A stretch of DNA of 46,716 bases from a phage. The stretch's first letter is position 1, and every line of letters begins with the position of its first letter. The notes beneath the pieces were generated by a model that was not told where the DNA came from, did no database searches, and saw only the letters and a program-made list of their open reading frames with translations. Shown piece by piece: positions 5,788-46,697 of this stretch. The DNA lies in NCBI GenBank assembly GCA_018580065.1, contig GCA_018580065.1_4845.1; one strand, given 5' to 3'. The translations under genes were made by a program, and so were the position numbers.

Positions 5788-5979
5788 ATGGCAAACATGT
5801 ACTACTGTATGTTCCGCAATACCGTGATTGATTTTCGTGATTGCGTTGATGCAATTGGTAATGCTGAGTCTATTGACGAGTTCAGCAATTCAGAACACAA
5901 GTCTGCCGAGCGCCTGTACCATCTGGCTAATGAGTACGTCGCATATTACGAGCAATTGTTAGAAGAAAGTGGTGAATGA
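5788..5979 (+). CDS. hypothetical acidic protein
   Basis: ORF track 63 aa. Confidence 0.45.
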   Translation: MANMYYCMFRNTVIDFRDCVDAIGNAESIDEFSNSEHKSAERLYHLANEYVAYYEQLLEESGE

Positions 5980-5980
5980 T

Positions 5981-6790
5981 ATGAAAACACTAAGCAAAAT
6001 CTATTCAGACAAAGAAACACGCAACGGCATCGCTGTTAACAAAACCTATCTCGTGCCAGTGGAGCAAATCTATCTGGAGCCGGGATATAACATCCGTGAA
6101 GCAGATGAGCAGCATGTTGAATATTTTGCGCAGTGCTGGGAGTCCGGCCAGCCATTACCAGCATTAACAGTTATTCCAGACGAGAAGGGAATCCGCATTC
6201 TTGATGGTCAGCATCGCTATCTCGGCGCATTGCGTGCCATTGAGCGCGGAGCACCAATCGTTCGAATTGAGTGCAAGGATTTCACTGGCGACGAGGCGGA
6301 CAAAATCGCCTTCATGGTGTCATCAAGTCAGGGTAAGCAGCTTGACCCGTTTGAGCGCGCAAAGGCTTACACGCGACTGAAAGGCTTCGGCTGGACGAAT
6401 GAAGAAATCGCAAAAAAGGTAGGGCGCTCAGTATCTGACGTGCAAATGCATCTGTCTCTTGGTGATGTTCCGGCGGAAGTAAAAGCGCGAATCAGCGCCG
6501 GGCAAATCAGCTATGCAAATGCCGTAGCAGTAACTCGTGAGCATGGTGACGATGCGGTAAAGGTTATCGACGAGGCGGTCGAGGAAGCCAAAGCGCAAGG
6601 TAAGGATAAGGTCACTGCGAAGGTGCTGAAGTCGAAAAAGATTAAGCCAGTAGACCGTCTGATTGAGTTATTGAAGCCAGCAGACCACGTGATTCTTCCT
6701 GCTGGTCATGTGGTGGCAGAGGATGAGGAATTTATCCAGATTCCTGTTGCTGACATTCACGAGGTTATGGCAATTCTGGAGAAGATGTGA
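5981..6790 (+). CDS. ParB-like nuclease domain protein with C-terminal HTH
   Basis: ILDGQHRYLGALRA motif typical of ParB/Srx N-domain; RBS before ATG 5981. Confidence 0.65.
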   Translation: MKTLSKIYSDKETRNGIAVNKTYLVPVEQIYLEPGYNIREADEQHVEYFAQCWESGQPLPALTVIPDEKGIRILDGQHRYLGALRAIERGAPIVRIECKDFTGDEADKIAFMVSSSQGKQLDPFERAKAYTRLKGFGWTNEEIAKKVGRSVSDVQMHLSLGDVPAEVKARISAGQISYANAVAVTREHGDDAVKVIDEAVEEAKAQGKDKVTAKVLKSKKIKPVDRLIELLKPADHVILPAGHVVAEDEEFIQIPVADIHEVMAILEKM

Positions 6791-16998: not shown

Positions 16999-17277
16999 AT
17001 GACAAAACGCGAATTACACCAATTATTTAACAAATGGCTTGATTCTGTTGGTTTTGGCGACATGAATGATAGAGAGAAGGACTTGCTTTGGTTTGGGTTT
17101 TCTGTTGGATATTGCCACGACAATAACAAGACCATGCTCGCAGCACTCCAGCAGCTTCTGGAAATCTACGACGACCATTCAGGAAAAGCCTGGACAACAT
17201 CAAGCAAGCGTCGTGCTCTGGATAATGCGCGCGATGCGGTTAATAAAGCGCTGGGGGAGCGCAATGAAACAATGTGA
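16999..17277 (+). CDS. hypothetical protein
   Basis: ORF track from GTG 16987; ATG at 16999. Confidence 0.45.
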   Translation: MTKRELHQLFNKWLDSVGFGDMNDREKDLLWFGFSVGYCHDNNKTMLAALQQLLEIYDDHSGKAWTTSSKRRALDNARDAVNKALGERNETM

Positions 17278-17749
17278 TCTTTTCCGTGTTCTTAGTTATA
17301 ACCCTGAATCTGGTGAATTCACGTGGATTAAATCAAGAAGACATGGGTTTAGCGGTCGAAAGGCTGGGTCGGTAAATGGGAAAGGGTACATACAGATCTG
17401 CATTGATGGAAAGCTTTATCTTGCGCACAGGCTTGCTCTTCTATACGTGACAGGAGAGATGCCAAAGGAGGTGGATCATATTAACAGGGTGAGAGATGAC
17501 AATAGATTATGCAACTTAAGGCCATGCACTTCATCTGAAAATAAGCACAACAAGGATATCACATCCAGAAACAAAACAGGGATGAAGGGCGTCAGCTGGT
17601 ATCCTGCCGGAAATTCATGGCGAGTAAGGATATGCGTAAATAAAACACAGATTCATCTGGGCTACTACGAAGACATTGAGCTGGCAGAGCTTGTGTCGCA
17701 AGAGGCGAGAATTAAATACGCAGGAGATTTTAATTATGAAGCTTATTGA
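17264..17749 (+). CDS. HNH homing endonuclease with AP2-like domain (second copy)
   Basis: VDHINRVRDDNRLCNLRPCTSSENKHN HNH motif; GVSWYPAGNSWRVRI AP2-like; paralogous to 6787..7281; ORF track begins upstream in-frame at 17066. Confidence 0.8.
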   Translation: MKQCDLFRVLSYNPESGEFTWIKSRRHGFSGRKAGSVNGKGYIQICIDGKLYLAHRLALLYVTGEMPKEVDHINRVRDDNRLCNLRPCTSSENKHNKDITSRNKTGMKGVSWYPAGNSWRVRICVNKTQIHLGYYEDIELAELVSQEARIKYAGDFNYEAY

Positions 17750-22895: not shown

Positions 22896-23085
22896 GATTA
22901 ATCCACCATGCGGCAATGGCTGAGAAAATCCACAATCCGATAACAAGTCTGAAAACCTGCCAGTTTAGAATGTCATCAATGCTTGGTGCTTCCCATCTAA
23001 TCAACCAGATAAGCGGAAAAGCAATCGCTAGTGCAATGGTGTACTTAATACCAATAAACAGAAAATCTCTCACAAAATCTCTCAT
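22882..23085 (-). CDS. small membrane protein
   Basis: ORF track 67 aa, two hydrophobic helices. Confidence 0.45.
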   Translation of the reverse strand: MRDFVRDFLFIGIKYTIALAIAFPLIWLIRWEAPSIDDILNWQVFRLVIGLWIFSAIAAWWINHVQG

Positions 23086-24028: not shown

Positions 24029-24055
24029 GCCCTCGATTGAGGGCTTTATTTTTAT
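24026..24055. terminator. bidirectional intrinsic terminator
   Basis: AAGCCCTC-gatt-GAGGGCTT with T-run; between convergent genes. Confidence 0.7.
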
Positions 24056-25515
24056 CGCCTGCGCCGGATTAGCATCCCGCTACCGCGCTGTACGATGTGG
24101 TCATTGAGTGCGTAGCGAACCGCATCCCAATAGTGGTTGTATGCATCAACAATATCAGTCAGCACATTCCCAGTCAGCTTATCAACCTTATAGCTGTACA
24201 TTGCAGCCTCATTCTGCATTTCCTTGCATCGCTCGTGGATGACAATGCTGTCACATCCGCGCAGCCATGTTACGCCATCTTCAACGCTACCCGGCCATTT
24301 TGTGCATGGATGAATATCAAATCCAGAGCGCTTAATATGGCTAATGGTTTCGGGTCGAGCACAGTCGGCATACCATCTTGCGCGTTTAGCCATCGGGAAT
24401 GATTGCTCCATCGCGGCTGGTGTATCGGTAATCTCAAGGCCAACCTTGCCATACTCGCGATTAATATAAATGTTGCGTCGTCCACCTGGTAATTCTTCAA
24501 TGTAAACCTCAACCATTGCGGTAGGATCGGTGGAAAACCCGAAGTCCATCCCGAAATATGGACCATGCCATTCAGGCTTAACCTCAAAGTTATCAATGCG
24601 CCATTTTCCGCCGAATACCTGCTCGTCGCTGCGTTTGTTGAATGCTCCCATCCAAATCCAGCGATAACGGTCGTAATCAGTTCGCTTCATTTGCTCCATA
24701 GCGGACGGCAGGGGAGTGTCCCAGAACCACGGGTTGTCTGAATAGTTACATTCGATAATCAGAATTTCATCGTTTTCGAATATGCCATCAACCATCTGCG
24801 AGTGATAAGGCGCAATCCAGTTTTTCCACGTCGGGTCTGTTTCCTTGTTTGGGTTGAATGAGCACCACAACTCGGAATTGGCGGCACGGATGGTAGGCAC
24901 AAGAATATCCCAGCTTGTCTGGCTGACGTTCTCTGCTTCCTCTACCCAACCAACGGTAATGCCAGCGAAGCCCTTAACGGTTGTCTGATTGCGATACAGC
25001 CCCTTGAAGCGAAACTTCGCTTTGGTCTTCTTGTGTGTTATCTCGTTGTTGATAACGCGAAACTCTGCCGATTCACCCTTCCGGGCTATCTCATCAACAA
25101 GTTCCTGATAGCTTGAATCCTCAATGGATTGCTGAATCTCACGAAAGCAAGCAAAGCGGTCAGGTCGAAACCTTGCGCGCTCGGTAAGGATAGTGATAAT
25201 TGTTCTCGTCTTCCCTGACCCACGGCCACCATAGACGAACTTGAATCGTTTGGGGTAAAGCAGTCGCTCCAGTTTTGCGGGAATCAGGTGGTCGGCATGA
25301 GTGGTTGCATTGGTCACGTCATCAACGCCAGTAGCGGTCATCCTTAACCGCTTGATGACGTTTTTCTGCATGTCGCAGATACCAAAGATGGCAGACTCTG
25401 CAACATCTGTCATTGCATCATCAATCTGCGCTTCCAGCTTTTCTATTGCCAGTGCAGAGAGGCGTTTACGAGCCATTGGTTGGCTCCTGAAGAATGTCGG
25501 CCACCTCCTCATCAC
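24052..25515 (-). CDS. terminase large subunit
   Basis: Walker A VYGGRGSGKT, ATPase then nuclease-type C-terminal half; true start may be MARKRL at 25476. Confidence 0.85.
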   Translation of the reverse strand: MMRRWPTFFRSQPMARKRLSALAIEKLEAQIDDAMTDVAESAIFGICDMQKNVIKRLRMTATGVDDVTNATTHADHLIPAKLERLLYPKRFKFVYGGRGSGKTRTIITILTERARFRPDRFACFREIQQSIEDSSYQELVDEIARKGESAEFRVINNEITHKKTKAKFRFKGLYRNQTTVKGFAGITVGWVEEAENVSQTSWDILVPTIRAANSELWCSFNPNKETDPTWKNWIAPYHSQMVDGIFENDEILIIECNYSDNPWFWDTPLPSAMEQMKRTDYDRYRWIWMGAFNKRSDEQVFGGKWRIDNFEVKPEWHGPYFGMDFGFSTDPTAMVEVYIEELPGGRRNIYINREYGKVGLEITDTPAAMEQSFPMAKRARWYADCARPETISHIKRSGFDIHPCTKWPGSVEDGVTWLRGCDSIVIHERCKEMQNEAAMYSYKVDKLTGNVLTDIVDAYNHYWDAVRYALNDHIVQRGSGMLIRRRR

Positions 25516-25601
25516 TCATTGACTCATCAAACACAACGTCTCGCTCATCTCCGCTGCGCAGAAGAATCACCTCATCACATCTTTGTTTATAATAAACTGA
25601 A

Positions 25602-26021
25602 TCATCCATTCTGCTGCTCCAGTAGTTTCTCCAGCCGCTCAAGTCTCGCGGCGAGTTCAGTAACTTCGGCAATATCCAGCCCTGTCCTGATAACCTCGGC
25701 AAATGTCTTACCAATGTCCACAGGTATAACACCAGCGGCTATACCTCGAATGACGGCGTCAATCTTCTGCACCGGAGTTCCGTCATCAGGGAAGTCCACC
25801 TCAAACACTGGGGCAACTGGTTTAGGTAGCGGACTGAATCGAACGATAAGCTCCTTCATCATTGCGGTGTCACGCTCAATCATTGCCATCTCAATGATGG
25901 TGTCATAGAGCTTTTCTTCGCTAAATCCCTTTCTCTCAAGAGCTTCAACAAGCAGCTTACGCTTATCTTTCCCGCGTTTGTTTTGTGGTTGATTTTCTTT
26001 ACTGAATAGCTTTTTAGCCAT
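25602..26021 (-). CDS. terminase small subunit (putative)
   Basis: 139 aa basic N-terminus, immediately upstream of terminase large subunit. Confidence 0.5.
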   Translation of the reverse strand: MAKKLFSKENQPQNKRGKDKRKLLVEALERKGFSEEKLYDTIIEMAMIERDTAMMKELIVRFSPLPKPVAPVFEVDFPDDGTPVQKIDAVIRGIAAGVIPVDIGKTFAEVIRTGLDIAEVTELAARLERLEKLLEQQNG

Positions 26022-27586: not shown

Positions 27587-27765
27587 TTTGTTAAGCCTCA
27601 TAAGAGTTAATGATTGCCTTGATGCGACGACGATACCACTGCATGATGTGTTCGTTATGCCAGTTACTCATTGTTACTCCCTATACCCTGATTTAGAAAC
27701 TGCCACTGCGATAATGATGAACGCCACGATAACCAGACTGGCGATAAGCTCGAATGATGCGCCTG

Positions 27766-27912
27766 TCATTTACCTAACCCATACGCCGAGATTAAAGCCT
27801 GCATTGCTGCGTTCCAGAATGCTTCTGCAGGAATACTGTTATTTGTGCGCTCAACTGCAATGCGCGCCATAGCCTGTGCATCTTTAAATTCTTCGCGGTC
27901 TTTAATTTTCAT
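27766..27912 (-). CDS. hypothetical small protein (48 aa), first gene after early promoter
   Basis: GAGGGTGAAGG RBS before ATG 27912; followed by overlapping tiny ORFs (31 aa membrane peptide 27674..27769, 26 aa 27591..27671). Confidence 0.35.
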   Translation of the reverse strand: MKIKDREEFKDAQAMARIAVERTNNSIPAEAFWNAAMQALISAYGLGK

Positions 27913-27942
27913 ACCTTCACCCTCGTTTGTTTCGATGAGTTC

Positions 27943-27971
27943 AATCTACATCAGTTGTGATTCTACGTCAA
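27943..27971 (-). promoter_or_regulatory. sigma70-like early promoter, TTGACG-17nt-TAGATT
   Basis: Minus strand TTGACGTAGAAT...GATGTAGATT; both elements are copies of the recurring motif. Confidence 0.6.
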
Positions 27972-27984
27972 CATGCAGAGAAAG

Positions 27985-28135
27985 AAAAAGCACTACCAAA
28001 TGTTAGTTAATGCTAGCCAACATATATAGTTACATATATTACTAATAGTAACCTTTGTTTATTACCTCTATAAAGTATATTAAGATCTTCTTTATATTTA
28101 TTGTAGATATTAATACCTTACGCTACAGAAACACG
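27985..28135. other. AT-rich block with dyad symmetries (candidate DNA unwinding element)
   Basis: Visibly AT-rich, non-coding, next to iteron array; contains TTGTAGATAT motif copy. Confidence 0.4.
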
Positions 28136-28165
28136 AAAACCAGCAGTTAAGCTGGTTATTTTTTA
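28136..28165 (+). terminator. hairpin with T-run inside the non-coding origin-like region
   Basis: AAAACCAGC-agttaa-GCTGGTT followed by ATTTTTTAG. Confidence 0.4.
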
Positions 28166-28185
28166 GTGGTTTTTAGTGTTTTTTG

Positions 28186-28414
28186 GCTTCCCGCGCTTCC
28201 CTGAATTCCCTGGAAGCATTTTTTTCTTTGTTTTCAGTAGCTTCTGAGTGTTTTTTGTATCGCTTCCCGCCTCCCAAGAAAATAATTTTTGAATTTTAAA
28301 ACTCTCAATTTTTTTCGAAAATCTTCCCGGGAAGCGGGAAGTTGGGAAGCGACGACTTAAATAATTGATTTTCCTGTATTTTCGCTTCCCAAGCTGTTTT
28401 GGTTTTTTGGAAGC
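28186..28414. repeat. iteron-like array of GCTTCCC / GGGAAGC heptamers (candidate replication origin)
   Basis: At least 8 copies in both orientations, including CTTCCCGGGAAGCGGGAAGTTGGGAAGC; located just upstream of the replication module. Confidence 0.55.
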
Positions 28415-28581
28415 AAAGCTATTGAAAATAAAAGAAAAATTACCCCTCTGGTAAGCGTTATACTCCTGTTGGAGTGTGCTGTCAACCAGCCGCACGGAAC
28501 AAAGATCATCCCCGTGTAAATGTGTTTGACTAGCTTCCTTTTTCCCTTTATTCTTTTTTTTATCAAACAAGAAGTGGAGAA

Positions 28582-28809
28582 ATGGCGATGAGCAAAGAAT
28601 ACCGATTTGGCAGTGCGATTGGCGAGGTCTGGGATTTTGTGCGTGATATGTTGGTTGGTGATCGTAAGGAGTTTAAATTTGATGAGTTTACCGCTAATGA
28701 AGGATTAAGGGGATTCAGAGTGAACCTTCATAAGGTTGCAGTGCGGAACGGATGGATGTTTAAAACGCGAGCTAAGGAGGGTGGCTTGTGGGTAAAACGG
28801 ATTAAGTGA
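28582..28809 (+). CDS. hypothetical protein
   Basis: ORF track 75 aa; TTGACT-17-TATTCT promoter-like sequence and GGAG RBS upstream. Confidence 0.5.
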   Translation: MAMSKEYRFGSAIGEVWDFVRDMLVGDRKEFKFDEFTANEGLRGFRVNLHKVAVRNGWMFKTRAKEGGLWVKRIK

Positions 28810-28820
28810 GGTGTTTGGAT

Positions 28821-29243
28821 ATGAAAAGGTACTACATTGAGGCAATTGGGGCTGATGGTAAAAAGTTATATGCCAGCGGTAGATGTGGTTTTCTGCATGA
28901 TTTTACCTATGCGAAGTTTTTCAAAACAATAGAGGAGGCTGAGGGGTATATGGCGTGGCGGAAGCCTCATCTCCCATGTGAAATAAAATGCAAGGAGCAA
29001 AGGGTAAAAAAACGGTCTGCGTCTCAGGTGGAACAAAAAACGACAATGGAGGGAGAAGCTAGAAACTTCGTCTACCGCCTTGGTTTGGATAAGGGAAAGC
29101 ATTTTGTGTTTGATGATTTTAAGTTGATAAAGAGCATTGATCAGTTGAGAACTTCCCTTGACAGGGTGGGTAAGAAGCTGCAAAAAAAATTCAGTGTCAA
29201 TATGGTTGCGCGTAATACCGCTTATGTGGTGAGGGTTAAATGA
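28821..29243 (+). CDS. hypothetical protein
   Basis: ATG 28821 with GTGAGGTG RBS (ORF track from 28806). Confidence 0.45.
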   Translation: MKRYYIEAIGADGKKLYASGRCGFLHDFTYAKFFKTIEEAEGYMAWRKPHLPCEIKCKEQRVKKRSASQVEQKTTMEGEARNFVYRLGLDKGKHFVFDDFKLIKSIDQLRTSLDRVGKKLQKKFSVNMVARNTAYVVRVK

Positions 29244-31573
29244 TGATTGGTTATGAAGATTACCGCAAATGTGGCTTCCCTATTATTGGAATCCATGCGA
29301 TGGATATCGACCGAAATTGCACATGCGGTGATCCAGAGTGCAATGCTGCCGGTAAGCATCCGGTTATGAGCAACTGGCAGCTTGGAGTTATATGGGCTGA
29401 TGACCAGATTGAAAATATGGCTGAATATGGTCAGTTGCAGTCATTCGGTGTCCTTGTGAATGGTTATCTGGTCGTTGATATTGACCCACGCAACGGAGGT
29501 AATGATGGATATGAATCGCTTTGTGATGCCTTAGACGTAGAGCTTGCTGACGAAGCTGGTTTTACGGTCAAGACTGGTGGTGGTGGTCGCCACATCTATT
29601 ACAAACTTCCTGAAGGAATAAAGCTGCGCTCTCATGACAGAAGATTTAATGGTATTGACTTTAAATCATCTGGTTTTGTTGTTGGATGTGGTTCTTTTCA
29701 TAAAACTGGAAACTTTTATGAGGCCGAGCATGGATCCCCTTCAGAGATAACTGAATGTCCATCTGAACTTATTGAGCTTTTGTTGCGTCCTGAGAGAACG
29801 GAAGACGAGGTTTTCACGCTTGATAGTAAAAATTACAGCATTGCCGAAATGGAGGATATGCTCAAATACATCAAAGATGGTGATGAGTATGACCCATGGC
29901 TTCATGTAGGTATGGCTATCCACGAAGCTACAGAAGGCAATGGTTTTGAGCTTTGGGATAGATGGTCATCGCAGTTCAGCAAATACAGAGCTGAAGAGAT
30001 GGACGCAAAATGGCATTCCTTTGGAAAGGACGGCGTTAGCGAAAAGATAACAGAAGCAACGCTGGTTTATCTCGCGCAAGAGGGGGGGTGGGTAAGGCAA
30101 GTAACTTTTGAGGCTACGCCAGAGGAAATTGAGAAACTTGAGTCTTTCGAACGAGAGATGGCAATGGGTGTTGGTGAATGCCCTGTAGAGTACAAAAGTG
30201 TTGATGTCCGTTATCCGCCTGGATTTGTTGGTCGCCTTGCGGCGTGGATTAATAAGAACTGTGCAGAGAAGCGAGAGAATATTGCAGCACTTGCCGCATT
30301 GCATGCCGCATCCATGATTTGCGGTGCGTCATCTGATATTTACCTTACAAACAGGAAGGCTTTACCAAACCTTTTTGCTGTTGGTATCGCTGGTTCAGGT
30401 TCAGGTAAGGGTGATGTCCTTGCTGCGCTACAAAAGATAATTGATTGCTCAGGATTGAGTAAGACAGTTGCCGGTAAGATACGCTCAGAGCGTGCGATAT
30501 ATGAAGGTCTTTGCGCTAACCAGATGTTTAATATCATCATGGATGAGATTGGGATAAAACTTGGGAGTGTTGTTGGTCAGAAAGTAAGCGAGTACAACAT
30601 GGCAACCGCTGGTGCGATCATGGAGGCTTACACGTCAGAAGTTCTTTATTGTGACCAGCGGGTTACTGAGGATTTCATTAAGTCTTTTGAAAAAAGAAAG
30701 GCTATGCTGTTGATGGCTATTGAGGAAAATGAAATACAGGCAGACCCCGTTGACATTAAGTGTCAGTTTGATGATGTGATAAACAGAATTGACGGAGCTA
30801 TAAGGAATCCATTTTTTTCAATCTTTGGTGTATCTACTGATGATCAGTTTAAGCGCCTTATTACAGAAGAAAACATTAAGTCAGGCCTTATGGGTCGCGC
30901 AATGATTATGCAGGAGTTACAGGAGATTGCTGATGAAAACGAAAACGTAAACTACTGTGATCTACCTATGGATATGCAACTGACCATAAAAACAATAATA
31001 AATGGCGGAACGGCTGGGCACAAAAACTGGACAGACTCAATAATCAGTCAAAAAGAAAGACGGATTATAAAAGCCACGCCTGAAGTTTCTCAGCTCGCCA
31101 AGGAGTTCTTCTCATGGATTAAAACCGTTGCAAGAAAGCATGTAGAAAATGGTACTGGTTATCACCCATTGATAAACAGATGCGCCGTGAAGGTGGCAAA
31201 GATTGCTGGAATTCTCGCGTGCGATACTGGCGTCATAACCATGGAGCACTTGAGATATGCGGTAGCATTAACAATTAAATCAACAAGCGATCTGATGATG
31301 CGTGCCGACAGTATCGCCGGAGCGAAGTCTAAAGCTATGGAAGAGAGAATTGAAGGCATTTTCTCCATGGTTAAAGAATATGTGAAGCGAGGAATGACCA
31401 AAACAGCAATGGTTAGAGGGGTGGCAAAAGAAGGTGGTTATAAACGTGCTGATGTCGAGAGGTGCGTAGAGAAGTTGTTATCAGATGGTGTTATTTGCAT
31501 TGATGAAAATGCAAAAAGAACATCTCACAACGTAATAATTTACAAATTAACAAATGATGAGGTTGAGATATGA
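29240..31573 (+). CDS. bifunctional DNA primase-polymerase with helicase-like C-terminal domain
   Basis: Prim-pol motifs VVDIDPRNGG and GGGRHIYY, PriCT-like DPWLHVGMAIHEA, Walker A GIAGSGSGKG. Confidence 0.8.
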   Translation: MMIGYEDYRKCGFPIIGIHAMDIDRNCTCGDPECNAAGKHPVMSNWQLGVIWADDQIENMAEYGQLQSFGVLVNGYLVVDIDPRNGGNDGYESLCDALDVELADEAGFTVKTGGGGRHIYYKLPEGIKLRSHDRRFNGIDFKSSGFVVGCGSFHKTGNFYEAEHGSPSEITECPSELIELLLRPERTEDEVFTLDSKNYSIAEMEDMLKYIKDGDEYDPWLHVGMAIHEATEGNGFELWDRWSSQFSKYRAEEMDAKWHSFGKDGVSEKITEATLVYLAQEGGWVRQVTFEATPEEIEKLESFEREMAMGVGECPVEYKSVDVRYPPGFVGRLAAWINKNCAEKRENIAALAALHAASMICGASSDIYLTNRKALPNLFAVGIAGSGSGKGDVLAALQKIIDCSGLSKTVAGKIRSERAIYEGLCANQMFNIIMDEIGIKLGSVVGQKVSEYNMATAGAIMEAYTSEVLYCDQRVTEDFIKSFEKRKAMLLMAIEENEIQADPVDIKCQFDDVINRIDGAIRNPFFSIFGVSTDDQFKRLITEENIKSGLMGRAMIMQELQEIADENENVNYCDLPMDMQLTIKTIINGGTAGHKNWTDSIISQKERRIIKATPEVSQLAKEFFSWIKTVARKHVENGTGYHPLINRCAVKVAKIAGILACDTGVITMEHLRYAVALTIKSTSDLMMRADSIAGAKSKAMEERIEGIFSMVKEYVKRGMTKTAMVRGVAKEGGYKRADVERCVEKLLSDGVICIDENAKRTSHNVIIYKLTNDEVEI

Positions 31574-31992
31574 TTAATTACAAGTATCTGGTGATGAGAG
31601 GTTTGTATGACTATTTTGAGTCAGAAAATCCTGAGCGCGCACATGATAACGCAATATCCATGATGACAGGAAAACACCTGATGGAAGTTTACTACTGGAA
31701 AATGCCAGTATTCCGCTGCAATATGGGTATCTGCATTGATGATGACGTACTGTTTTGTCGAATACAATATGAAAACAATGTAGGCATAGTGACAGCATCG
31801 TACAGGGATGTCGCAAGAAAATCCGGGAAATGGCATCCAAGCGAAGTATTTGCTGGTGACGCACTATTTAATTTCTGCAAGGCGTTTGGTGTTTTGTATG
31901 AGGATGTAAGCAAAGAGTATAGCGGAAGGCGTGAGAAAGATAGCTTGAGTTCCAAAGGCGTGACTAACTACAAGGATAAAAACCATGTGTAA
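31570..31992 (+). CDS. hypothetical protein
   Basis: ORF track 140 aa. Confidence 0.45.
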   Translation: MINYKYLVMRGLYDYFESENPERAHDNAISMMTGKHLMEVYYWKMPVFRCNMGICIDDDVLFCRIQYENNVGIVTASYRDVARKSGKWHPSEVFAGDALFNFCKAFGVLYEDVSKEYSGRREKDSLSSKGVTNYKDKNHV

Positions 31993-32763: not shown

Positions 32764-32792
32764 AAAAGCCCGCAAACGCGGGATTTATTATT
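32764..32792. terminator. bidirectional intrinsic terminator
   Basis: AGCCCGC-aaac-GCGGGAT followed by TTATTATTT. Confidence 0.65.
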
Positions 32793-33030
32793 TAACAATC
32801 CATTTTGTAACGGCTGGCCTTAAATCTTCCTTTCTGAAAACGCCACCAGTAAGTCTCTCGGCATCAATTGCTGCTGTAGCGCTAATTCTTCCTCTTGACA
32901 CCCACTGATTGACAGCCTGTTTTGACACACCAAGAAACCTTGCCAGTTGTGATTGCCCTCCAACATAATCAATCAGCTCTGACAGCTTCGTCTGTTCCAT
33001 TTCTCTTATCTGTTCTGCGATGCTTTTCAT
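32788..33030 (-). CDS. XRE-family (Cro/CI-type) HTH transcriptional regulator
   Basis: SQLARFLGVSKQAVNQWVSRG helix-turn-helix; lone minus-strand gene with its own TTGACG-17-CATTAT promoter. Confidence 0.6.
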   Translation of the reverse strand: MKSIAEQIREMEQTKLSELIDYVGGQSQLARFLGVSKQAVNQWVSRGRISATAAIDAERLTGGVFRKEDLRPAVTKWIVK

Positions 33031-33059
33031 GTGTTTACCTCTGCTATCTGTATGCAGCA

Positions 33060-33088
33060 ATAATGAACTCAAAAAAAATTTTCGTCAA
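33060..33088 (-). promoter_or_regulatory. sigma70-like promoter for the HTH regulator
   Basis: Minus-strand TTGACG (plus 33083-33088), 17-nt spacer, CATTAT (plus 33060-33065). Confidence 0.5.
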
Positions 33089-46080: not shown

Positions 46081-46697
46081 TATGTATTCCTCGCTTTTTT
46101 CGCTTTGCGTTCAGCCAGTGCCTTCATGCGCTCACGGTCTGCTTTAGCCTGATCGTACTCTGCCGCGCGCTCTTCTTTCGTTAACCCTTTCGGCTCTGGA
46201 TATTTATTCTTAATCATCATCTGAAACTCTGTCATGGACAGGTTTTCTGCCTCATCGCGCGTCATGTCGAAATGCGTGCGTGCTGAGATAATGTATTGCG
46301 ACGCATGAAACTCATTTGTGGTTTTCTTGCCCTGCTCTTCCAGACGCTCAGGTACTTTGAGTGGTGACTTGCCAATGATGCCATGCTGCATCAGGTTGCG
46401 CGCAATAATAATAATGTCGCTCACTGGCATGATGCCGGGAACGTATCGCACGCCGCGCGGCGTTGGCTTCCAGCCACCAATCAGCACAGAAATATCATCT
46501 TCACAGCATGACTGCATTACGATATAGGCCGCACTCAGTACATGGCGACCATACACTGGTTTGCTGATTGTCTTCATAACCTGCATCTGCGCGCCAAATG
46601 GCAGGTATTCGACGTGCTGCAGCGGCGCAACATAATCAATGCCATTGAGCTTAGCGTATACCTCAACGATTTCCTTTGGTGTGCCAATTTCATTCAT
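46080..46697 (-). CDS. tail assembly chaperone (putative; may be truncated by window edge)
   Basis: 205 aa directly upstream of tape measure; reading frame stays open upstream to the window end. Confidence 0.4.
   Translation of the reverse strand: MNEIGTPKEIVEVYAKLNGIDYVAPLQHVEYLPFGAQMQVMKTISKPVYGRHVLSAAYIVMQSCCEDDISVLIGGWKPTPRGVRYVPGIMPVSDIIIIARNLMQHGIIGKSPLKVPERLEEQGKKTTNEFHASQYIISARTHFDMTRDEAENLSMTEFQMMIKNKYPEPKGLTKEERAAEYDQAKADRERMKALAERKAKKARNT

Follow-up and report, generated by a model that had tools for sequence, protein, structure and literature searches.

A probable replication origin and its candidate primase-helicase initiator in a lytic siphovirus of the Sf11/Skate-like group

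In the SaPI elements (staphylococcal pathogenicity islands) the replicative helicase, Rep, carries a C-terminal winged helix that binds iterons of 5–6 nt flanking an AT-rich centre. Each side has at least two iterons, the two sides are oppositely oriented, and the helicase is loaded without a separate loader (PMC9371898). The alpha protein of satellite phage P4 combines a primase, a helicase and a C-terminal winged-helix origin-binding domain in one polypeptide (PMC2777425). In pRN1 ORF904, and also in the MCM-primase of a Bacillus cereus prophage and in phage NrS-1, the order is Prim-Pol, helicase and winged helix, with the origin in noncoding DNA beside the gene (PMC2777425). Here we describe a locus that resembles these systems in a phage genome of 46,716 nucleotides (NCBI GenBank assembly GCA_018580065.1, contig GCA_018580065.1_4845.1; this whole stretch is called the window below). 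The 46.7-kb window looks like the complete genome of a lytic siphovirus, with Shigella phage Sf11 (Cedarrivervirus), Escherichia phage Sa179lw (Buchananvirus) and Klebsiella phage YX3973 among its relatives; one paper has proposed the name Skateviridae for the group to which these phages belong (PMC11769527). The locus consists of the intergenic region at 27913–28581, at 669 bp the largest of the window, and of the gene for a 777-aa primase-polymerase/helicase, the initiator candidate, at 29240–31573 on the plus strand. We consider it likely that the region is the replication origin of this siphovirus of the Sf11/Skate-like group and is served by the adjacent, self-loading primase-helicase. 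The origin proposed is of an already known kind and not a new kind of mechanism.

An initial annotation, made from the letters of the window, had described about 450 bp of noncoding DNA with an origin-like array of at least eight copies of GCTTCCC. The noncoding stretch is real but larger, and the copy number holds if degenerate copies are counted. Exact copies of GCTTCCC or its complement GGGAAGC occur nine times in the window, and six of the nine fall within 28186–28390, at 28186, 28195, 28262 and 28384 on the plus strand and at 28329 and 28344 on the minus strand; the others are singletons at 22988, 29274 and 37649. When one mismatch is allowed there are 12 copies (six exact and six with one mismatch) in 28186–28456, out of 115 in the window, and other stretches of 280 bp hold at most about 5–6 each. 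The core of the array is the octamer CGCTTCCC, with all five of its window copies inside the array. The word measures 7–9 bp and the spacings between iterons are irregular, from 7 to 53 bp.

The iterons are arranged around an AT-rich spacer of 46 bp with a GC content of 15% (28276–28321), which is the proposed unwinding element. To its left lie an outer group on both strands (28186–28217), made up of GCTTCCC at 28186 and 28195 on the plus strand and TGGAAGC with one mismatch at 28211 on the minus strand, and the inner-left iterons on the plus strand (28262–28275), in which CGCTTCCC is followed by GCCTCCC at 28269 and both face the spacer. To its right the inner-right iterons (28322–28351, both strands) comprise TCTTCCC at 28322 on the plus strand and three minus-strand copies that face the spacer, GGGAAGC at 28329, GGGAAGT at 28336 and GGGAAGC at 28344; the palindrome CTTCCCGGGAAG lies within this group and is formed with the preceding plus-strand copy. 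The outer-right iterons (28384–28456, both strands) are GCTTCCC at 28384 (plus), TGGAAGC at 28408 (minus) and GGTAAGC at 28450 (minus). The two inner sets, in opposite orientation, converge on the spacer with at least two iterons on each side (28262 and 28269 against 28329, 28336 and 28344). Among the window and the related loci ECO95 and L022 the spacer is invariant except for two substitutions at its left edge in ECO95 (28276–28277), while some iterons vary; at least one of the two inner-left copies is perfect in both relatives. Between the right-hand iteron groups there is a match to the IHF consensus (AATCAATTATTTA, 28358–28370, minus strand), and IHF-like elements were seen by eye in several relatives, but with so weak a consensus in AT-rich DNA this would be only a lead. 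No DnaA box was found in the region at up to one mismatch.

A scan that covered every 7- and 8-mer and was blind to GCTTCCC ranks this array as the top word cluster of the genome and finds no second cluster of the word in the window. Thermodynamic stability also singles out the region. The least stable 46-bp duplex of the genome (dG −43.1; mean −61.9, standard deviation 4.3) lies at 28070 within an AT-rich block that the initial annotation had correctly noticed (27985–28135, 25.8% GC), and the third least stable is the spacer, at 28277, so that two of the three least stable 46-mers fall in the region. The global minimum of the cumulative GC skew is at 28328.

The recurrence of the array at a syntenic place in relatives is the stronger argument against chance. 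The left part of the region, comprising the AT-rich block and a hairpin, is about 90% identical in Sf11, Sa179lw, YX3973, ECO111 5-P and gmqsjt-1, and nucleotide similarity ends just past the hairpin; beyond this point each phage has an array of its own. The word is CTATTTGCC(A) in Sa179lw, CTAAATGCC(A) in YX3973 and CTATTTCCCG in ECO111 5-P and gmqsjt-1, where it was read from the sequence as the copies are fewer and below the scan threshold. Sf11 has GCTTCCC, as the window does, although the surrounding DNA of the two is unalignable beyond about 28168. The survival of the word through this replacement of its flanks argues against chance. Across five whole genomes (the window, Sf11, Sa179lw, YX3973 and Klebsiella phage 6991) the top word cluster lies at the large intergenic region beside the primase-helicase operon, although in YX3973 the array is the top cluster of non-trinucleotide words and not the absolute top. 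The words at this syntenic site are lineage-specific, the one held in common being that of the window and Sf11, and in phage 6991 the array, of AGACTTTAG, is found downstream of the operon terminator.

Eight metagenomic or Yersinia-phage loci also have a repeat cluster at the same place, top-ranked in six of the eight and weak in Yersinia phage P400 (L054) and in L055; one of their words is TCTGTAAA, which is present 12 times. The diversity of loci came from a protein search with contig look-ups; a further scan of viral contigs by protein alignment yielded hardly any new ones. In Vibrio phage pYD21-A and Brucella phage A1 (33%-identical protein) the scan finds arrays around an AT-rich core with the same gene order. 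The word is ACTTATGATCAC in the former (L057, 3340–3690) and GATCCCA(A) in the latter (L058, 3160–3510), and both contain GATC. Repeats at the same site in ST46 and Akira were seen by reading the sequence and not by the scan. In ST46 (Macdonaldcampvirus, L020 5014–5814) and Akira (Akiravirus, at the ends of records L047 and L048) these are arrays of [AG]TGCCC or of GTGGGGCA/TGCCCCAC. After the ST46 array come a gp1-like gene and a gene for a DUF3987 helicase that lacks a Prim-Pol domain, and after the Akira array an AP2-domain gene and an open reading frame (ORF) of 517 aa. Both phages have a separate zinc-ribbon primase gene nearby, and the Akira record labels the repeats only as 'repeat_region'.

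Wherever the sequence was read, the layout consists of oppositely oriented sets around an AT-rich core. In six relatives two G/C homopolymer runs of 6–10 nt, 40–46 bp apart, enclose this core (L050 5517/5558, L051 5520/5562, L046 4316/4359, L045 9605/9648, L040 42997/43037 and L054 8935/8981), and four more have single runs of 7–8 nt (L041 46081, L052 825, L053 9459 and L056 8807). Such runs are otherwise nearly absent from those genomes. The window has none, with GCCTCCC on one side of the spacer and CTTCCCGGG on the other. The runs might mark the start of priming by the Prim-Pol domain or the limit of melting by the helicase.

The differences in word between relatives offer a way of asking which protein reads it. 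We aligned 19 sequences of the 777-aa protein from 19 loci and, for each word class, recorded the columns whose residues are disjoint from those of all other sequences. The relatives make up a natural series of swaps: three contigs whose protein is merely 68–75% identical to that of the window (N-terminal domain and core) still carry CGCTTCCC, and ECO111, gmqsjt-1, YX3973 and L038 have other words with helicase cores about 99% identical to the window. The GCTTCCC class is separated only by columns 763 (H vs N) and 764 (N vs A/K/R), the CTAWWTG class only by 740, 754 and 764, and the CTATTTCCCG class by 764 alone, so that for these three classes every separating column falls within a 25-residue stretch of the 777. 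The GACTTTAG class has nine separating columns, five of them in 700–753. At position 764 the residue varies with the word among N, A, K and R. Among the proteins tested the word tracks only the primase-helicase, at residues 740 (K/E), 754 (I/K), 763 (H in the window, codon 31526–31528) and 764 (N, codon 31529–31531).

Several other proteins were considered as the binder or specificity determinant and set aside. The small protein gp1 is only 47% identical between the window and Sf11 despite their common word, and the gp1 of Sf11 and that of Sa179lw both begin MYRFGSAMAE and look similar by eye, though their words differ. The ORF of 145 aa that follows gp1 is absent from Sf11, which has the same word. 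The protein of 227 aa encoded at 17066–17749, which had at first looked like a winged-helix regulator, is an HNH endonuclease, and it is replaced in ECO95 and L022 despite the common word. The Cro-like protein (32788–33072) varies independently of the word, as do the large and presumed small terminase subunits. For gp3, encoded directly after the primase-helicase, identity is 44–56% in three genomes with the same word and 79–82% in genomes with other words, and it has just a single, non-conserved separating column.

The residues that track the word map to one predicted domain. Pfam assigns the Prim-Pol, PriCT_2 and DUF3987 AAA+ helicase domains to the 777-aa protein and PHROG calls it a DNA primase. 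Searches with its sequence and with the ST46 helicase against the PDB gave no matches, and we therefore turned to fold comparison. An AlphaFold model of residues 301–777 (predicted local distance difference test score, pLDDT, 84; predicted template modelling score, pTM, 0.85) has an AAA+ core and, after it, three helices and then two strands with a loop between them (residues 695–770). This segment, encoded at 31322–31549 on the plus strand, is predicted to be a winged helix with its wing at 755–766. In the model the third helix contains residue 740, and 754 and 763/764 stand at the ends of the first strand and of the wing, respectively; in winged helices it is the third helix and the wing that contact DNA (PMC2777425). 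The best Foldseek matches of the whole model are MCM subunits and Orc1/Cdc6, with E-values of 3e-6 to 1e-3. A separate model of the last 94 residues (pLDDT 71.5) has winged-helix domains, almost all of them DNA-binding, as its top 50 Foldseek matches. On these models the 777-aa protein is predicted to be a helicase-type initiator with a C-terminal winged helix, which as a protein of the SaPI kind would act as a hexamer.

By analogy with SaPI Rep, for which initiation of this kind has been demonstrated (PMC9371898), and with P4 alpha and pRN1 ORF904, for which it has been proposed (PMC2777425), the 777-aa protein would itself carry out binding, melting, self-loading and priming. Its winged helix would recognise the word of 8–9 bp, (C)GCTTCCC(G/A). 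Proteins bound to the inner, oppositely oriented copies would assemble into ring helicases and open the 46-bp spacer at 28276–28321, after which the helicase would load itself and the N-terminal Prim-Pol domain lay the first primers. No DNA polymerase gene has been reported in a related phage genome (PMC11769527), so the primers would presumably be elongated by a host polymerase. The outer copies and the AT-rich block would probably raise the local concentration of the protein and bend or destabilise the DNA, and they may let the initiator influence two divergent early promoters. The origin-like reading of the initial annotation is supported by every computational test made: by inverted iterons on both flanks of the spacer, by recurrence at a syntenic site, by co-variation of word and winged helix and by the minima of GC skew and stability.

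Compared with the SaPI origins, the likeness extends to the iterons, which are short (5–8 bp) in 6–12 copies around an AT-rich centre, against six exact copies and six with one mismatch in the window. It extends also to the helicase, which in SaPI too is the initiator that reads the iterons through a C-terminal winged helix; SaPI5 has the primase fused to it, and specificity differs from element to element (PMC9371898). The ATPase fold predicted here matches MCM best and in this resembles SaPI Rep2, not the SF3-type Rep1 and PriRep5. The position of the origin differs. In SaPI it follows rep directly on the 3' side. Here it is a neighbour of the gene but has no fixed place: it precedes the gene by 0.2–1 kb or, in 6991-type phages, comes after the entire operon. 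Its carrier is no satellite but a lytic phage that infects Gram-negative bacteria, and the primase-helicase has no detectable sequence similarity to any solved structure. Initiation in P4 is DnaA-independent, at octamer iterons in both orientations (partly PMC2777425). The P4 primase is, however, of the DnaG/Toprim type, whereas Pfam Prim-Pol and PriCT_2 place the one described here among archaeo-eukaryotic Prim-Pol proteins, and P4 needs a second cis site, crr, whereas the window has no second cluster of the word. P4 alpha is also 777 aa long, which is a coincidence. The site of pRN1 ORF904 resisted biochemical identification, while here comparative data name a candidate site and the residues that may read it. 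Iteron plasmids (pSC101, R6K, RK2 and P1) and lambda likewise have repeated initiator sites beside an AT-rich unwinding element with a possible IHF site. There, however, the sites measure 17–22 bp and are helically phased, and the Rep or O protein that binds them is no helicase but recruits host DnaB, in contrast to the word of 7–9 bp with irregular spacing found here. DnaA boxes are usual in those origins but absent here at the mismatch limit given above, the lambda origin lies inside the O gene, and the operon products that were scanned included no protein of the Rep or O type.

Several points weigh against an origin at this site. The cluster of exact matches is by itself only moderately unusual: among 200 first-order Markov genomes, five had an exact 7-mer cluster of at least six copies and one had an 8-mer cluster of at least five. 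The minimum of the GC skew is confounded, because the direction of transcription switches at the same place. It is also unclear which of the two AT-rich segments, the block around 28070 or the spacer, would be the unwinding element. The model of the winged helix alone has modest confidence, and its Foldseek E-values are weak, at 5e-3 or higher. The co-variation depends on a handful of independent lineages, and the changes at 763 and 764 may represent a single event. The C-terminal domain is the same in YX3973 (CTAAATGCC) and L038 (CTATTTGCC), yet their words differ by two central bases, so either these bases are not read or there is another contributor. The gene for gp3 is linked to that of the helicase and, with its one weakly separating column, gp3 retains a slight residual chance of having a part in reading the word. 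The literature that we searched gave no replication data on this phage group; on origins and genome ends we found nothing for Sf11, the Skate announcement is silent, and the Skatevirus genome-reduction study is silent on intergenic DNA. Finally, the Sf11 record (L041, NC_054636.1) contains an exact duplication of 335 bp (1–335 is identical to 46120–46454) that runs from the T-run of the spacer into gp1. An assembly overlap or a genuine terminal repeat might explain it, and it leaves a small opening for a role at the genome ends.

The main alternative is that the repeats are operator sites only, through which the same protein or another regulator controls the two divergent early promoters, and that replication starts elsewhere, for example by a recombination-dependent route using the downstream Sak4-like, Gam-like and SSB genes. 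The array does lie between two sigma-70-like promoters, a degenerate copy of the word sits in the spacer of the rightward one, many initiators repress their own genes, and the operon encodes recombination proteins as well. However, the sole protein that tracks the word is the primase-helicase and not the Cro-like or another helix-turn-helix protein, the array of the 6991-type phages is downstream of the operon terminator and not at a promoter, and ECO95 has not kept the copy in the promoter spacer. A very AT-rich core with G/C runs at its borders and inverted sets around it is moreover the layout of an origin (PMC9371898). We regard a purely regulatory role as unlikely, though operators would be compatible with binding by the same protein and autoregulation may well coexist with origin function.

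It is considerably less probable that the region is a packaging signal or genome terminus recognised by the terminase, be it as a pac site or as the edge of a direct terminal repeat. The end duplication of the Sf11 record starts in the AT-rich spacer and the Akira record also opens inside the repeat region, and in the pac site of P1 short repeats flank the cleavage zone. Record starts may simply reflect convention or assembly overlap, however, and the terminases do not follow the word. In its large subunit the window is nearer to phage 6991 (80% identity), where the word differs, than to Sf11 (60%), where it is shared, and its presumed small subunit (25602–26021) shows 98.6% identity to the protein of YX3973, whose word is another, and 44% to that of Sf11. 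Several small ORFs and 1.9 kb separate the site from the presumed small-subunit gene, and a related phage is reported to be terminally redundant and permuted, without fixed ends (PMC11769527).

Even less can be said for a centromere-like site bound by the ParB-like protein encoded at 5969–6790, which the initial annotation had named as an alternative binder. Such a gene is present, and centromeres are often arrays of short repeats in both orientations. Against this, the ParB-like protein is 100% identical in ECO111 5-P and 97–98% identical in Sa179lw, both of which have different words, its gene is 22 kb away, and the phage is lytic with no known plasmid stage. A functionless product of chance or slippage is the least credible reading of all, for while 2.5% of the simulated genomes reach the size of the exact-match cluster and the surroundings are AT-rich and repetitive, all the relatives examined, from three host groups, show this architecture with different words at the syntenic site, and the word outlasts the replacement of its surroundings between the window and Sf11.

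Returning to an origin served by the primase-helicase, the natural variants may amount to a small, readable recognition code of a winged helix on an origin, a suggestion that we make tentatively and hold to be rather doubtful at present. Within such a code residue 740 of the third helix appears to track the 3' half of the word (TCCC vs TGCC), and the wing residue 764 differs in every word class. If the code is real, the specificity of the initiator would change with one or two substitutions, relatives that co-infect a cell would keep separate replicons that do not cross-activate, and matched pairs of origin and initiator could be designed. The variants would in any case supply origin-initiator pairs that are separate by nature, and a series of specificity swaps from which candidate recognition residues can be named. 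In the literature searched, the origin and initiator of this widespread lytic enterobacterial group (Sf11, Skate, Akira and relatives, many of them proposed for therapy or biocontrol) are undescribed, and naming an origin, an initiator and specificity residues makes direct experiments possible. The combination of a primase-helicase, a winged helix and short inverted iterons, known from satellites and an archaeal plasmid, would on this evidence extend to virulent phages of Escherichia, Klebsiella, Yersinia, Vibrio and Brucella.

The remainder of the intergenic region contains promoters, the AT-rich block and a hairpin. A sigma-70-like promoter for the leftward operon of small genes is found at 27943–27971 on the minus strand (TTGACG, 17 nt, TAGATT), and the block around it (TTCTACGTCAA at 27961) is kept in all window-type relatives and in ST46 and Akira. 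The AT-rich block, about 90% conserved as described above, may assist in unwinding, serve as a site for host factors or act as an upstream element of this promoter. A promoter scan and reading by eye found no convincing rightward promoter inside the block for a short RNA ending at the hairpin. The hairpin itself, AACCAGC-agttaa-GCTGGTT at 28138–28157, is preceded by an A-tract and, as the initial annotation had noticed, followed by a T-run (ATTTTTT). Its stem is CCAGC/GCTGG in the window, CCCGC/GCGGG in L049 and CCCGG/CCGGG in L050 and L051, and the A- and T-tract flanks are kept (the L052 equivalent was also compared). These changes were read directly from the sequences, as MAFFT misaligned three of them and the formal RNAalifold counts are unreliable. 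Because they are compensatory, the hairpin is under selection, probably as a two-way intrinsic terminator that insulates the iteron region. Just beyond it two direct repeats of TTTTTAGTG on the plus strand (28161–28179, starting at 28161 and 28171), which had likewise been noticed at the outset, are conserved in ECO95 and L022. The rightward replication operon has a sigma-70-like promoter at 28526–28554 on the plus strand (TTGACT, 17 nt, TATTCT), and the degenerate copy in its spacer is GCTTCCT at 28533. The minus-strand ORF at 28163–28570 had been dismissed as an artefact, and rightly so: 26 of its 135 residues are lysine, it has no PHROG match, and it has no counterpart at 70% or more of its length in Sf11, Sa179lw, YX3973 or phage 6991. 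An Rfam scan of 27700–28800 gave only sub-threshold chance matches (a microRNA and snoRNAs) and no known RNA gene.

To the left of the region a leftward operon of small genes runs to the terminase genes. The rightward operon encodes a protein of 75 aa, the 145-aa ORF, the 777-aa protein, gp3 and the Cro-like gene, followed by a Sak4-like ATPase, a Gam-like protein, SSB and a DEAD-box helicase. Two small ORFs (28582–28809 and 28806–29243, both on the plus strand) separate the region from the primase-polymerase gene. The first encodes the gp1-like small protein (phrog_28700), which precedes the helicase gene in window-type relatives and ST46; the position directly upstream of the helicase gene is taken by a Cro-like gene in 6991-type phages and by an AP2-domain gene in Akira. 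The second, the 145-aa ORF between gp1 and the primase-helicase, is without Pfam or PHROG match and is present in some relatives only, among them L022 and YX3973 (a 38%-identical version), and is absent from Sf11 and Sa179lw. In most relatives the gene for gp3 (140 aa, phrog_33005, 31570–31992, plus strand) overlaps the primase-helicase gene at its stop codon, and some 3' neighbour is present at every locus. The gp3 protein diverges roughly in step with the primase-helicase and could be an accessory replication factor.

Elsewhere in the window the packaging genes (24052–26021, minus strand) are mosaic, as the identities of the large subunit to those of Sf11 and phage 6991 indicate; the gene of 139 aa upstream of the large subunit, taken as the small subunit, belongs to phrog_9747. 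The HNH endonuclease gene at 17066–17749 (plus strand, phrog_99) is 99% identical in Sf11 and replaced or absent in ECO95, L022, Sa179lw and phage 6991, and from this distribution seems to behave like a mobile homing-endonuclease gene.

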